Assembly: GCF_053078305.1 (NCBI RefSeq)
Contig: NZ_CP166879.1
Reading direction: 5' to 3' (one strand)
Length of the DNA stretch: 64,000 bases
Shown here in pieces: positions 50,101 to 56,100 of this stretch (within the stretch, counting starts at the first letter, position 1; every line of letters begins with the position of its first letter). Made by a program: the position numbers.

Positions 50101-53100
50101 CTGACTGGCTCTTTTTCGGGGCTGTGGGGTATTTCCAGGGCCTCTCCTTTACCACTCTCGGGAAGGCCCTTTCCCTTCTTGTCGGTAATTTCACAAGTTG
50201 TCCCATACTTGCAAGATCGCGCATCAGCTCCGGTATACGTCCCGGGGAAGCGCCCTGCAATGTCATCAGCATTCTCATCACCATTCCGCATGATTCTGAG
50301 AAACTCAGTTGATTCGGCCAGTAACCTTTCAGATGTTCCGCCATTTTAATCATCTGATATCTCACCAGATTATAAGCCAGTAAGACACCCCACAGCTCTT
50401 GCTCCACAAGCTCCGGCTTTTTACTTCTCAGCGTCAGCCTGCTCAGTTGCATCGTCTGTTTTATCTCCCTGTATCCCAGTTCGATTTCCCGGCGATGACA
50501 GTACAAATCCGCCATTTCTCCTCCGGGGAAGCGCATGGCGTCCGTCATCGACGTCAGCAGATGGCAGACTTTTCCTTTGCACGTCACGGTCAGCAGGCGG
50601 GCTGTCACCTCATTTCCCAGTCCCGGCCACTTTTTTCGTGCCTGTGGGCTGGTTTTCAGTTTCACCAGATGATCGCCTTTACCCGGTTTTCTGATCTCTT
50701 CATATTGCGCTCCCTTTCTGAGAGGGATCATCCAGTGGCGGTGTTCTCCCGCCAGGCTCCAGGCATTTAACAGTCCCAGTGAGTAATAACCTTTATCCAT
50801 TAACGTCAGAGTGTTATCGCCAGTTTGTTCTATAAGTTGCTCAGCAAGCTCATTTTCGCTGTTCTTCATCGTGCCGAAGGCTGCAGCCGTCAGCAGATGG
50901 CTGGTCAGTTCCATCTGGCAGACCATTTTGACCTGCGGGTAGAGCGCCGGGTTCCCGGCATGTGTCTGACGGGGGAAGGCTGCATCGTTTTCTGGTGTAT
51001 CCGGTGTGCGCCAGAACACACCATCGATGGCCAGCAGGGTCAGGCCGCACCAGTGCGGATGCGCGTGGCGTTATGCCAGAGCTGCGCTGTTTTCGTGAAC
51101 ACGCGGCGGACAGCCTCACTTCCCGGGCGCTGGCGGGCCTGAATAACGGCACTGGGGGCAACGAAGGGGCGATTGCCCGGCAGCATGATGTCCAGACGAT
51201 TCACAATCTGGTGAAGAGGTTCTTTACGCTCAAGCACCATGCCAACAATACACCAGACCATCATTTCGAGGGGAAGACGGCGCTTGCGTAGCGTTACAGT
51301 ACCTGATTCGGCAAGGCAACGAGAGATGAGTTCGGGGGCGAGGTAATCCCTCAGAGAAGTCTGTGGGTTACTCAGAGAATCGTAACGGGATACCAGATCA
51401 AGGGCCTGTCCAGTGTGCATAAAAAAATCCGGAAACGAGTGAGCGTTTCTGGATTCTTACACAGCCACTGGATCGGTCAACTGATCCTTAACTGATCGGC
51501 ATCACCTCTCAGGAGGGATTTTTTGTCCTGTCACCGCAACAAAACTGGACATACTGAAAGATACACGATACAATGTTACCAGCGCGTTTCTGGTGCCAGA
51601 GTAGTTTGTAGGGATGATTACAGTCAGGCATGTGCCAGAAACGCACTCAACGCACTTCTGAGAGTTTCAAAATCATTACCAGATATCAAAAATCGCGTCA
51701 GGATGTTTCTGAGCGAGTTTCTTCCTCGTTAATCCGTTCAGTTCAGTCATTCCATTGTCTGGAAAACCTCCTGGAAATACGCTCAACTCTCAATCTCTTT
51801 CTTGCAACCGACCAATTTCGTGACCTTGATATCCACCGCAGTCTGAAGCATACAACCGAGCCATGGTAATATACGGACTTCCGGAAATCTGAAAAATTAC
51901 TCTTAACAGAGAAGAGCACCAGGAACACGATCGGCATCACTGTTTTTGCAAACTTCCCTGTGGCAGTCTTTATTCGCCATATAACATAGCACTGAATGTC
52001 TTCATTGATTTTTCCATTGTAGTTACTCCTTCCTTGTACCGGGGGTTGGTCATGCCCCCGTTTTTTATTCCCTCAGCTCCCTTAATCGCACTGCCAGGCG
52101 CAACAAAACACATCAACTGTGGCAGGTATGGAAACACCAAAAATTCTCACTTCCGGAAATCTGAAAAATTATCCATATTAACAGGATGCGCCGGAAACAT
52201 GATTTCCATCACATCCAGGACTGGACTTTCCGTGACAGTATTTGTTTGCATAGTAAAAACTTCACAAGTATATAATTGGCTCAGTTCATGGGGGAGGTGA
52301 TGGTTCCCCCATCTTTTTGTCTGTTACTCCTGCCCCAGCCAACCCTGTATGCCAGTATCTCATCCGCACTGCTCAGCTTTTCCAGCCCTTTCTTCATGGT
52401 GCGCTGGCGAACGTGGATTTCCATCCCTTTGGTGAACATCGCCTGCTCTGCCGCTTCACTCAATGCTATAAGCTCTTCTGCTGTCACCTCCACATCATTA
52501 TTTTCCGCATCCGTCCAGAAAAATGCCTCCGGCAGTTTCCCCGCTTTCGCTGCCGCCACCGATGGCTCAAGACGCGTCTGCGTTGACTTCCCGTAGTCCC
52601 ATTTACGTCCATTGTGCTCAAACGTGTAATTCGCAGCTTCCATCGCATTACGCCAGGCGTTAATTTCATCGCCCTTCATCCCGCGCGCTTTCTCCGCGGT
52701 CAGCAGGTCCGTGATTTTTTCCCCGTCAAAGCCCCAGCGCCCACTCAGGTCAATTTTCCGGCTCTCCGTGGTATCCGGCACTTCTGCCACACTCTGGTTC
52801 ACCGGCCACAACAAGGCAGTCTCCTTACCGTATCCCGTAATCACACCCCGGCTGCCATACACCACCTTCAGCGTCTCCGGCAAAAACAACGCCTGACACT
52901 CATACCAGTCCTGACCATCCTCAAACTTCAGGTACATCGCTCCTGCAACATCCGGCACCGCCAGGGTGTAATACGAAAAATTTCTGATATGCATAATGTT
53001 TCCGTGCCCTCTTTTGCCATTGCCACCCAGACCGGCATTTTCTCCGCAACGAAGCCCCGACGCGCTTTTTTCCACTGTTAAAGAGTAACTTCCCCTGCAT

Positions 53101-56100
53101 TATACCAGCCGCATCTCCCGCTGGCGACGGAATGGCGCCCTGTGCCTCCGGGGCCTGACCGGGGGCTGCTTTTGCATGACAACACGAAACAGGCGGGATT
53201 TACCGACGGGATGCAGGTTAAAATCTGTGTGATGCCCGACTGCATCATCATCACCACCCAGAACAGCCGCGAGCTGTGGGGCTGCGCCGAGGGGCTGAGC
53301 GTGACACATATCAACAGGCCGAAGATGCTCCAGTGATTTAACACCTTCCCCGGCGCTGGGCCGGCTGATGATTGAGGCGGAGTTTAAGTTCTGAGGTACT
53401 TTTAATGACGATCCCGGCGCAAGGCCGGGATTTATTCTATCAATTTTTAATTGATTCACATTTTATCTAACATTAAAAAACATTTACCAAAGGGATAACC
53501 TAGCTGCATACAGCCATTTAGGACATCCCATATATGCTGTGCAACCCCTCCCAATATGACCCCTAGGATTATACCGAGCACGACATTAACTTTTATTTTA
53601 TGCCGTGGTATTTCCTTACCTAACCGCCACGAATCAAAATAAGTAAAACTATAGCCGATTAAATAAATAACCGGGAAGAACACCACGAACCCTAACATGA
53701 TCAGACCAACACTAAAACCAAGCATCTCGACCTCCATAACATGGAAAAATAATAACTAACTAATACATCGACTCAGCGCCAACCTGAGACCAGCGCCGAT
53801 CTCTTCAGGTGAACTATCTGCTGGCAAGATAACATTATCGCTACCGCCACGTCCGGTACCTCCCCATTCTTCCAGCTTCTCATGGCGCGATGGTGAGATT
53901 GTAATTACGCCGTTAGCACAAGAGATATCACAGCTTTTCATACCTTTAAATAAGGCTTTTTTAGTTTTATAACCATACTGCATCATGAGTTTCTTTACCC
54001 AATCAGCATAGCGTTCTGCTGTACACTTAAAGTCATAAAGCTCCATATCGAATGTTGCTTCAGGGTGTATCCATACATCTGTATGGGGAGCGGGTAATAC
54101 AAAGCGACTATGAGCCAACGCATTCTTCACCATAATACCTAACTCATTATCACCAATATCAGGTGTATTCAGTTACTGAACTCCTTGAGGATCACATCGA
54201 TTACTACTGTAACCAGAATAAGTTTCAACACAGATAAAATCTGCATTCGCTTTTACAGAGGCCCATGCCGTTTTTACTATGTTATTCATATTATTTCACC
54301 TGAGTTACCTTAACACCCTGACTTTTGCCATACTCAACAGCCCTGTTTATTTCCGTCCATTGAGTTTTCGTCGTATTGGCAGGGACAGCTAATCTCACAT
54401 CTTTACTGGAAATCATTGATGAGTCAATATTAACGCCAGAAAGTGATGCTTTCTCAAATTTCGCTGCCGCATCAATATTTCCTTTAAGCGAATAATAAAC
54501 CTGATTGGGATTAGCCAGTTTTGCCATCGTCTGGGTATCCATTGATTTAGCACTTACAGCAACTCTTGATGCTTCATCATAATAATCAAACGTTTTAAAG
54601 TTTTGCGGTAATCGCGAATTTGCCGGAAGTGTGGTTCCCACATAATCCTCCACGGCATCCCCTGCTTCATATTACCCTGACCCCACTTCAACCCGCTCTA
54701 TGAAGCGCTGACTGTGGCTGTTGCTGTATTGCGACGCATAAAGGAAATAGCTGCAACGCCGATATCCTTTGCCAATAGACCTAATGAAGCCACTGCCACT
54801 TGATTTTCAGGGGCTGACACAAACAGCGCATATTTCATCCATTCCAGACTATTCATGTCTATTTTAGCCAAATCCTGACCATTCCATTGCTGAACGTAAG
54901 CTTTTGCCTCATCACTGGTCATGACATCAGCGCCAATACTTCCTAGCCAACCAGGACGCTCTGTCATATCAATACCGCCTAAGGCAACCTCTTTATCCCA
55001 GCCCATAGCTGTTAAAGGATGATTTTCCAGACGTTCATCAACGATGGCACTATGCTCGTCACTGACTTTTTTCCATTTATCAATAACATTCTGACAGTCC
55101 CCCCCAATTTTCGGCAGTTTGTCAGCTCTTTATCAAATTCGACGGCCTGAGAACTACTCAGATAATTATTCTCAACAACATTTCAGAACCCCTTAACTTT
55201 CATGATATGCAACAAACCAATACCCAAACCTAAGATCCCACCCCCATACACACTCATTTTTAACAGTCTAGAAAACTGAAAAACTTCAAATGATATTGGG
55301 GCATTCAAATAAAAATACATAAATATCTCCAGAAGAAGATAAAAAATCGAACCGACTATAAACAAACCAAATATGCATACAGTCATTAATAAGACAACAA
55401 TAAGGAAGCTCTTCATTTCCCAGCCTCCATTGCATCTTTCTTTTTCTGGATAATGGAGCTTCCAAACTCAGATGATAAACTACCACCCGCATTACCCACA
55501 GCACCAGGGATCTTACTCGGTACCATTTCTTTAGATAGACCTAACTGCCCTTTAACTTCAGTATATTTTAGTAGAGTCGGATCGAATTTAGGATTCCAGC
55601 CATCGGTTATCCATTTAGCGATTGTATTTGCAGCAGGCTTGACCACATAATTGCCAACCCCATATCCAAACCCGGCCCCCGCTCCATTTGTAATCGCCCC
55701 AGTAAAAGGATCATCTCCGTTTATAGCGTTGGTTAATGCTCCACCTGCCGCATTCCAGGCTATTGTCCCTTTCCAGCCCTGCCCCATGGTTATCACATTT
55801 ATCCAGCCTGCTGCCACTGAGTTGACCCGGTTTATTTCACCACTATCTGCATACTGCATCCCGGCATTTGTCCCGGCACCAAGTAACCACATAGCTTGGG
55901 CACTCCCCGGTAACAGGGCTACGCTGCCTGTTGCTAATGCGGCTGCATAAGCTTTATTTTCAGCCTGTCCCCGCCTTACAGGCTTCACCGGAAGGATTAT
56001 CACTACAGGAGAGAACATCAGCGCCATGCTCTCTGGCTTTTTCCGTCTGGAGCCATTCACTGCCACCCAGCAGATTATTCTCAACAGCATTCTTCCCGCT

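Follow-up and report, generated by a model that had tools for sequence, protein, structure and literature searches.

The 64,000-nt stretch of contig NZ_CP166879.1 analyzed here (hereafter the window) carries, at the distal end of a contact-dependent inhibition (CDI) locus made of cdiBAI genes and an array of orphan modules, a gene of the phage tail fiber assembly (Tfa) type next to a remnant of a gene for a SymE toxin. We conclude with good confidence that this interval is a non-functional junction scar, in which a tfa relic stranded from a prophage meets the wreck of a symE gene. The setting of the scar is a mosaic E. coli genomic island. An earlier note on this DNA had proposed a Tfa-like open reading frame (ORF) and a truncated SymE-like core motif within 52281-53336, between an IS4 copy and orphan cdi modules. 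Profile searches with both ORFs supported the two family assignments far beyond chance, and their E values rule out chance ORFs as an explanation; the order IS4, Tfa-like gene, SymE remnant and orphan cdi array (the cdi modules begin at 53456) was also confirmed. Synteny comparison traced the Tfa-like gene to the tail fiber region of prophages and the SymE remnant to a subfamily that neighbors cdi genes, the junction of the two being found in one lineage only. The view that these are isolated fragments left by earlier recombination thus holds in general, except that the Tfa-like gene is not truncated and the SymE remnant is not an unrelated stray.

The longest minus-strand reading of the Tfa-like ORF starts at the first GTG and covers 52281-53075 (264-aa form). 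Alignment with prophage homologs placed the real start at the ATG at 52994, which gives a protein of 237 aa. PHROG 11571 covered the full protein (E = 1.8e-141). The N-terminal half, which the earlier note had described as conserved, is homologous to characterized Tfa proteins: residues 1-98 matched PHROG 136, "tail fiber assembly protein" (E = 2.4e-25), and residues 20-105 matched the tail fiber assembly protein U of phage Mu (PDB 5YVQ_B; E = 1.3e-12). The same note had called the C-terminal half unrecognized, and here it needs correction, as residues 131-236 of the 264-aa form matched DUF4376 (PF14301) in a Pfam scan, with an E value of 9.6e-17 and 61.8 bits against a cutoff of 25. Caudo_TAP (PF02413) was not matched at E<=1 in the Pfam scan. 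Judged from these matches, the protein is a two-module member of the Tfa type, with a conserved N domain and a DUF4376 C domain. It resembles Mu gpU and the Tfa proteins of the lambda/P2 type in its homologous N-terminal ~100 residues and its two-module architecture, but differs from them in the missing Caudo_TAP match, in the nature of its C module and in having no fiber gene beside it. The N domain of the Mu U type is conserved among Tfa chaperones, and DUF4376 would be the kind of C domain that recognizes a particular fiber tip.

The gene lies on a prophage-derived segment that also includes 433 nt on its 3' side and, ahead of the ATG, 65 nt that take in the 3' end (last ~66 nt) of a phage gene for a 74-aa protein. 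Over 1,213 nt, this segment is 93.7% identical to the tail fiber region of a Shiga toxin (Stx)-like prophage with an N4-gp56 capsid in E. coli JNEC-KY171 (L001). Nucleotide identity to a lambdoid prophage with gpJ (L002) was 91%, and the closest deposited phage was phiSTEC1589-Stx1c (89.5%). By megablast, the Tfa/DUF4376 gene was found in 177 of 5,426 complete E. coli genomes at 80-95% identity, annotated there as "DUF4376 domain-containing protein" or "tail fiber assembly protein." At the two of these loci that we opened, L001 and L002, it directly follows the tail fiber gene and the 74-aa gene, whereas in the window no fiber gene is present for it to follow. The 224-aa DUF4376 proteins of these Stx-like and lambdoid prophages (WP_000972080.1 and WP_032185456.1; phiSTEC1589-Stx1c region) share 94-95% aa identity with the window protein over 220 residues, as well as the 3' flanking DNA. 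In contrast to them, the window copy has an ATT in place of the first Met codon (ATG), reaches 237 aa through a terminal frameshift, and is severed from the 74-aa and tail fiber genes at 53059.

Consistent with the claim that no other phage structural genes are present, megablast found no phage-like DNA in 39001-64000 of the window besides the IS4 copy and ~52140-52955, a search that is blind below ~85% identity. Since only 1.2 kb of phage DNA (51848-53059) remains, the gene has no fiber partner. We describe it as a whole gene, damaged by a terminal frameshift only, that is stranded on this 1.2-kb fragment. Within the segment, two 32-nt direct repeats (88% identical) flank 272 bp that are present in the window and in L001 and absent from L002. 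Isolated tfa genes that have survived the decay of their prophage are familiar from the cryptic prophages of E. coli K-12 (tfaE, tfaR, tfaQ and similar). The window gene is like them in its isolation, but the K-12 genes lie inside recognizable cryptic prophages, whereas the window copy is confined to 1.2 kb of phage DNA flanked by IS4 and the cdi array.

The frameshift is a 1-nt deletion three codons before the stop, which turns the ending AQE* into a tail of 17 residues (the last 3 aa replaced and 14 aa added). Because the ORF is otherwise whole and 95% identical to prophage proteins, the gene might have been kept as useful, either as a chaperone acting in trans on the fibers of other prophages or through co-option by the cdi locus. 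Its ratio of nonsynonymous to synonymous substitution rates (dN/dS) relative to the prophage copies is 0.13-0.20, similar to the 0.24 between the two prophage copies themselves. Read-through transcription is also conceivable, given that the gene shares its strand with the cdi genes, and a promoter-like site is found on the minus strand at 53127-53099. However, a low dN/dS cannot distinguish present constraint from constraint exerted while the gene was in a phage, and may be a relic of that time. Promoter-like sites were no commoner than in shuffled sequence (3 found, 3.0 expected), and the scan therefore gives no evidence that the gene is expressed. In addition, megablast detected neither a fiber partner nor other phage DNA within 25 kb, and the altered C-terminus runs into the gene's own terminator hairpin. 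Joined to SymE, the gene occurred in none of the 5,426 complete E. coli genomes (megablast). An identical locus was present in at least 23 public E. coli contigs, and the seven loci that were fetched had the same gene layout and were 99.96-100% identical over 2.5 kb, so that the Tfa-SymE junction looks like the property of one lineage. Finally, no other SymE/cdi locus examined by annotation or Pfam calls (L029-L066 being outside this check) contained a DUF4376 gene. We thus consider retention for a function unlikely. As a relic, a chaperone gene deprived of its fiber gene, operon and promoter context would have nothing to do at this locus.

On the other side of the junction, the mechanically defined SymE ORF (53142-53336, plus strand) encodes 64 aa. 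It matched SymE_toxin (PF08845) with an E value of 3e-6 and 27.7 bits against a cutoff of 29, and positions 48-74 of 113 of the NCBIfam endoribonuclease SymE model (PRK13605) with an E value of 1e-5 and 25.4 bits against a cutoff of 132. No full-length SymE domain above the curated cutoff was found in Pfam or NCBIfam. In spite of these scores we regard homology to SymE as certain, because tblastn with an intact 115-aa E. coli SymE (P0001) aligned residues 34-97, and only these, at 78% identity. The motif is indeed truncated, as had been proposed: the SymE_toxin match is limited to positions 31-54 of the 54 in the model. A protein search with the 76-aa product of the closely related remnant in E. 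coli O22:H8 retrieved intact 115-aa relatives across Enterobacterales, including P0001, which is 93% identical to this query. The C-terminal motif FPGALNDTGD is conserved in this 115-aa subfamily.

Alignment and translation showed that the first ~40 codons of symE are replaced in the window by unrelated GC-rich sequence (53060-53187), which leaves the equivalent of residues ~41-97. We also found that one nucleotide is missing in comparison with the ORF of 79 aa for which E. coli A19 and EC556 have an annotation, and that a nonsense lesion (TGG to TGA) is present at 53334-53336. Just after it, a 78-nt deletion following 53356 removes the 3' end of the gene; in comparison with E. coli M19, this deletion lies between 8-nt repeats, CCCGGCGC. 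With the 5' replacement, the nonsense codon and the 78-nt deletion, no intact ORF of ~110-115 aa with a native start is left. Rfam gave no match to the antisense RNA SymR at E<=1 in 51400-54200 of the window, and no cis-antisense partner was found there. The single Rfam match in that region, a snoRNA at E = 0.63, was discarded as chance. Since the first ~40 codons and the SymR region are gone, and the nonsense codon and the 78-nt deletion destroy the rest, this copy is dead: we read it as a SymE pseudogene that has lost both the SymE and the SymR partner.

The frame of 64 aa is open, it is annotated as a 54-aa "SymE family" protein (P0118) on 52 contigs, and the 79-aa version of A19 and EC556 is annotated as intact. 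One could therefore take the 54-64-aa product for a functional miniature SymE-like peptide, a toxin or a regulator. Such a peptide would have to act with the C-terminal part of the domain alone (positions 31-54), without a native start codon or a SymR region, and after the frame change, the nonsense codon and the 3' deletion described above. Moreover, the lesions differ from one related copy to the next: M19 has frameshifts close to each end, A19, EC556 and O22:H8 have the 5' replacement in common, and such a spread is the signature of decay. We regard a functional peptide as very improbable. In other databases, the PDB sequence search with P0001 gave no meaningful match, PHROGs had no match for the SymE remnant or for a 93-aa ORF of the adjoining cdi array, and PADLOC had no defense system model for either of these or for the DUF4376 protein, its helix-turn-helix (HTH) matches being generic.

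In intact members of the subfamily, a SymR-like match was found antisense over the SymE start codon at six of the six loci tested (E = 6e-6 to 8e-4). These loci come from Salmonella, Cronobacter, Yersinia, Enterobacter, Lonsdalea and a metagenome-assembled genome (L016, L019, L023, L025, L027 and L037), and each match ends 5-6 nt inside the SymE coding sequence. Because the matches sit at this consistent position, we argue for a real but divergent SymR, and the cdi-linked subfamily looks like a genuine SymE/SymR system. It is similar to SymE/SymR of K-12 in its homologous SymE_toxin domain and in the SymR-like antisense RNA over the start codon of its intact members. It differs in being only 30% identical to K-12 SymE and in its distinctive C-terminal FPGALNDTGD tail, and the window copy differs further in lacking both the N-terminal half of the domain and SymR. 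As a separate observation, the Rfam family isrA, an Hfq-binding small RNA of Salmonella islands, matched antisense to genes or remnants of the SymE family, with 113 bits in E. coli PEC395 (L022, 2713-2841, minus strand) and with 45-46 bits, just under the cutoff, in Lonsdalea (L027, 3007-3127 and 5087-5212, minus strand). It may be an antisense partner of a SymE paralog.

Every close SymE relative that we looked up adjoins polymorphic toxin cassettes. At E. coli locus L014, SymE is convergent with cdiI and a cdiA of 3,150 aa; in Cronobacter it lies inside an orphan array; and in Yersinia, Enterobacter and Lonsdalea it is likewise found beside such cassettes, Lonsdalea having three successive cassettes that are each followed by an (HTH-)SymE unit. 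E. coli M19, A19, EC556 and O22:H8 also link SymE to cdi. A scan of one representative genome per species returned 38 SymE loci, of which 35 were informative. A CdiA-like ORF was present within 10 kb of SymE in 24 of these 35, and in 22 of the 24 cdiA was downstream of and convergent with SymE. We roughly estimate that a cdiA would lie at such a distance from well under 1% of random genes. SymE starts 40-100 nt beyond the cdiI that accompanies a full-length cdiA in at least seven species, and many scan loci contain 2-6 SymE copies or remnants, all on one strand. Three further loci had toxin, immunity or pre-toxin domains (Imm26, CdiI_ImmP and DUF6862), the Imm26 locus with an additional weak, sub-threshold GIY-YIG match. 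The remaining eight, from a slightly more distant sub-clade, had ordinary neighbors (NicO/HypF, fimbrial genes and PhyH). Because the subfamily recurrently adjoins cdiA/cdiI in convergent orientation, the window copy is best described not as random debris but as a decayed member of a subfamily that, on present comparisons, regularly neighbors cdiA-CT/cdiI across Enterobacterales. In the searchable literature, SymE in CDI/HecA clusters or in type VI secretion/Rhs clusters is mentioned only in passing, for Dickeya zeae, Erwinia amylovora, Pantoea ananatis and Xenorhabdus.

The remnant adjoins hsdR/hsdM fragments in A19, EC556 and O22:H8. Given that symE neighbors hsd in K-12 as well, the gene could be a resident of the hsd/mcr "immigration control" region, beside which a cdi island landed by coincidence. 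This explanation is already disfavored by the low identity to K-12 SymE noted above. It is also at odds with M19 and Proteus mirabilis BL95, Cronobacter, Lonsdalea and many scan loci, where SymE lies inside the array with cassettes on both sides, often in those multiple copies, and with the convergence seen in 22 of the 35 informative loci. We give it very little credence. Also at SymE/cdi loci, a PTS_2-RNA gene (KptA/Tpt1-type RNA 2'-phosphotransferase) follows SymE in Yersinia (L023, 4401-4943), and homologs occur at two others (L035, 240-773; L057, 6433-6972), which suggests a possible RNA repair link to an RNA-cleaving toxin.

At the junction between the phage fragment and the SymE locus, 16 nt, CCGCAACGAAGCCCCG, are common to the end of the phage homology (14 of 16 matching) and to the start of homology to the SymE loci of A19, EC556 and O22:H8. 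The 14/16 match is compatible with recombination at short homology. Further phage sequence retained in A19-type DNA left of 53044 would date the junction, but the alignment there (~25 of 31 nt, with two indels) is ambiguous. The left boundary at 53044 is common to the three genomes, with an hsdR fragment to its left there and phage DNA in the window, and identical boundaries with different flanks look like the end of a mobile element. The sequence replacing the SymE 5' end is GC rich (59%) and non-coding. It is not phage DNA, since a phage database search with 53040-53200 gave no match.

Part of this sequence (53118-53197) matched the integrase-proximal end region of units composed of a tyrosine integrase, a DnaG/Toprim primase, an HTH gene and SymE, with 82.7% identity over 81 nt to L022 4001-4081; with respect to SymE, its order and orientation agree with those in the units. 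The units are proposed here and are not a curated family. Their carriers are Salmonella (L019-L021), E. coli PEC395 (L022), Erwinia (L032), Citrobacter (L051), Prodigiosinella (L062) and Dickeya (L066); in all of them the HTH-SymE pair is divergent from the primase-integrase operon, and SymE faces, in convergent orientation, toxin/immunity cargo or a whole cdiA. The units have in common a conserved GC-rich non-coding region immediately 3' of the integrase, that of L022 being conserved beside the integrases of L019, L032, L051, L062 and L066. In L022, a 140-aa "hypothetical protein" is annotated over this region; it matches no Pfam family and has the look of a spurious ORF in GC-rich DNA. In L066 (Dickeya oryzae ZYY5), perfect direct repeats of at least 300 nt (11879-12178 and 19449-19748, spaced 7,570 bp) frame one unit; they could be attachment site duplications or a recent tandem duplication. 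No tRNA genes that might serve as attachment sites were found in six unit-bearing loci. Between IS4 and the cdi array, the window has no ORF of 120 aa or more besides the pieces of the IS4 transposase and the Tfa/DUF4376 gene, and no HTH, primase or tyrosine integrase gene was found there. The 81-nt match that remains would fit a deleted unit and is no proof of one.

The homologies, lesions, boundaries and recurrent SymE-cdi linkage are direct observations, and from them we infer the following history. SymE, of a type I toxin-antitoxin subfamily normally located immediately downstream of and convergent with the last cdiI, would have come in with an integrative unit of the integrase-primase-HTH-SymE kind that adjoined the cdi locus. 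On the simplest reading, one deletion between the GC-rich integrase-proximal end of the unit and SymE codon ~40 would then have removed the integrase, the primase, the HTH gene and symR; the deletion junction is shared by the three other E. coli genomes examined, A19, EC556 and O22:H8. The left boundary at 53044-53059 would be the end of the unit, abutting prophage DNA that was later eroded, with IS4 nearby.

Several points weigh against our overall reading of the interval. The Tfa-like ORF is altered in its last codons only and has the low dN/dS given above, and a loss of function is not visible in its sequence. All SymR-like matches score below the Rfam gathering threshold (39-48 bits, threshold 61). 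The putative reconstruction of the unit has as its basis the 81-nt match at 82.7% and colinearity. In addition, if the integrase had already been deleted, the same left boundary with different flanks would require mobilization in trans or another mechanism. We nevertheless think it likely that neither the Tfa-type gene nor the SymE remnant does anything at this locus. The coordinates of the features are collected in Table 1.

Table 1. Features at and around the Tfa-SymE junction (window coordinates)
Feature	Position	Strand	Remarks
IS4 copy, degenerate transposase	~50081-51524	-	split into ORFs 51040-51420 and 50093-51019
Spacer between IS4 and phage fragment, 323 nt	51525-51847		weak matches only, no phage match
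Prophage-derived segment	51848-53059	-	Tfa/DUF4376 gene with flanks
32-nt direct repeats	51868-51899 and 52140-52171		flank 272-bp segment
Tfa-type ORF	52281-52994	-	237 aa; Mu U-like N domain, DUF4376 C domain; Pfam, PHROG and PDB matches
Junction, 16 nt	53044-53059		end of phage homology and start of SymE locus homology
GC-rich non-coding sequence	53060-53187	+	replaces SymE 5' end
SymE pseudogene body	53188-53356	+	residues ~41-97 of intact 115-aa SymE
Terminator-like hairpin	53410-53432	+	between convergent SymE and cdi genes
Hydrophobic 93-aa ORF	53456-53737	-	first of minus-strand cdi array; travels with CdiI/SymE block
Orphan cdiI (PF07262)	53756-54289	-	in-frame stop at 54173-54175
Orphan cdiA-CT, EC869-like nuclease domain	54291-54653	-	Pfam
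Orphan cdiA-CT, CdiA helical domain	54698-55006	-	Pfam

The neighboring array is of the orphan type, with CdiA_helical, CDI_toxin_EC869_like and CdiI matches within 53756-55006 and no 5' portion of cdiA. The array continues with more cassettes until, at 57031-63933, a cdiA ORF of 2,300 aa or more is reached. Decay extends to the array's terminal immunity gene, as cdiI carries an in-frame stop (Q39* in comparison with the M19 protein of 177 aa). The 93-aa ORF between cdiI and SymE probably encodes a small membrane protein; it was matched by none of the families in Pfam, PHROG or PADLOC and is 96.6% identical to a protein of 89 aa in M19. The block formed by SymE, this ORF and cdiI (53188-54361) is 95-97% identical to M19 at the nucleotide level, and the hairpin is conserved in M19, O22:H8 and Dickeya L066 (repeat D5 in L066). 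The M19 CDI cluster is reported to be nearly identical to that of P. mirabilis BL95 ICEPm2 (PMC11278526). The window shares with the M19/BL95 cluster the symE/small ORF/cdiI block, its convergent orientation and the terminator hairpin, but there more orphan modules follow symE, whereas here it is followed by the phage fragment and IS4, and each SymE copy has different inactivating lesions.

The IS4 copy is ~97.5% identical to IS4 over the whole element, and neighbor gene calls (L011) assigned Nterm_IS4 and DDE_Tnp_1 domains to its ORFs. The spacer that separates it from the phage fragment is 73-82% similar to unannotated DNA, mostly in E. coli plasmid records. Two 53-nt direct repeats (72% identical; 49947-49999 and 51669-51721) lie on both sides of IS4, ~80-200 nt from its ends, and are not a target site duplication. 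At 17000-23600 and ~28000-44150, the wider window shows the makeup of a mosaic island, with an iha/btuB-like receptor region that is 98.6% identical to genomes of Stx-producing E. coli and, according to neighbor gene calls, a microcompartment-type operon (BMC shell, PduV-EutP and acetate kinase), with IS66 and IS21 fragments between this operon and the cdi locus.

The interval itself consists of ordinary decay products of known families, to which public annotations already refer as a DUF4376 protein and a SymE family toxin, and it teaches nothing new about phage fibers or SymE. Its value is that of a pointer to a SymE subfamily as a regular convergent neighbor of cdiA/cdiI. With somewhat less than even confidence, we propose that the 115-aa SymE/SymR subfamily, which in many cases has a Cro/C1-type HTH gene ahead of it and in some is accompanied by a tyrosine integrase and a DnaG-type primase, is a conserved 3' "punctuation" of CDI toxin/immunity cassettes across Enterobacterales and a route to the building of orphan arrays and to cassette exchange. 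Repeated integration or recombination at the SymE module, followed by deletions, would build the orphan cdiA-CT/cdiI arrays, and the phage tfa fragment would be the DNA that the end of the unit came to abut. Whether the association of SymE with cdi is a general phenomenon that has not yet been described systematically we can affirm only tentatively, and we offer the linkage and the possible integrative unit, with similar caution, as a plausible lead and not as a result. The assembly of orphan CDI arrays and the swapping of cassettes are only partly understood. If our proposal is true, a conserved downstream module that offers a homology arm or forms one end of an integrative element would provide a concrete and testable handle on how these arrays are assembled.

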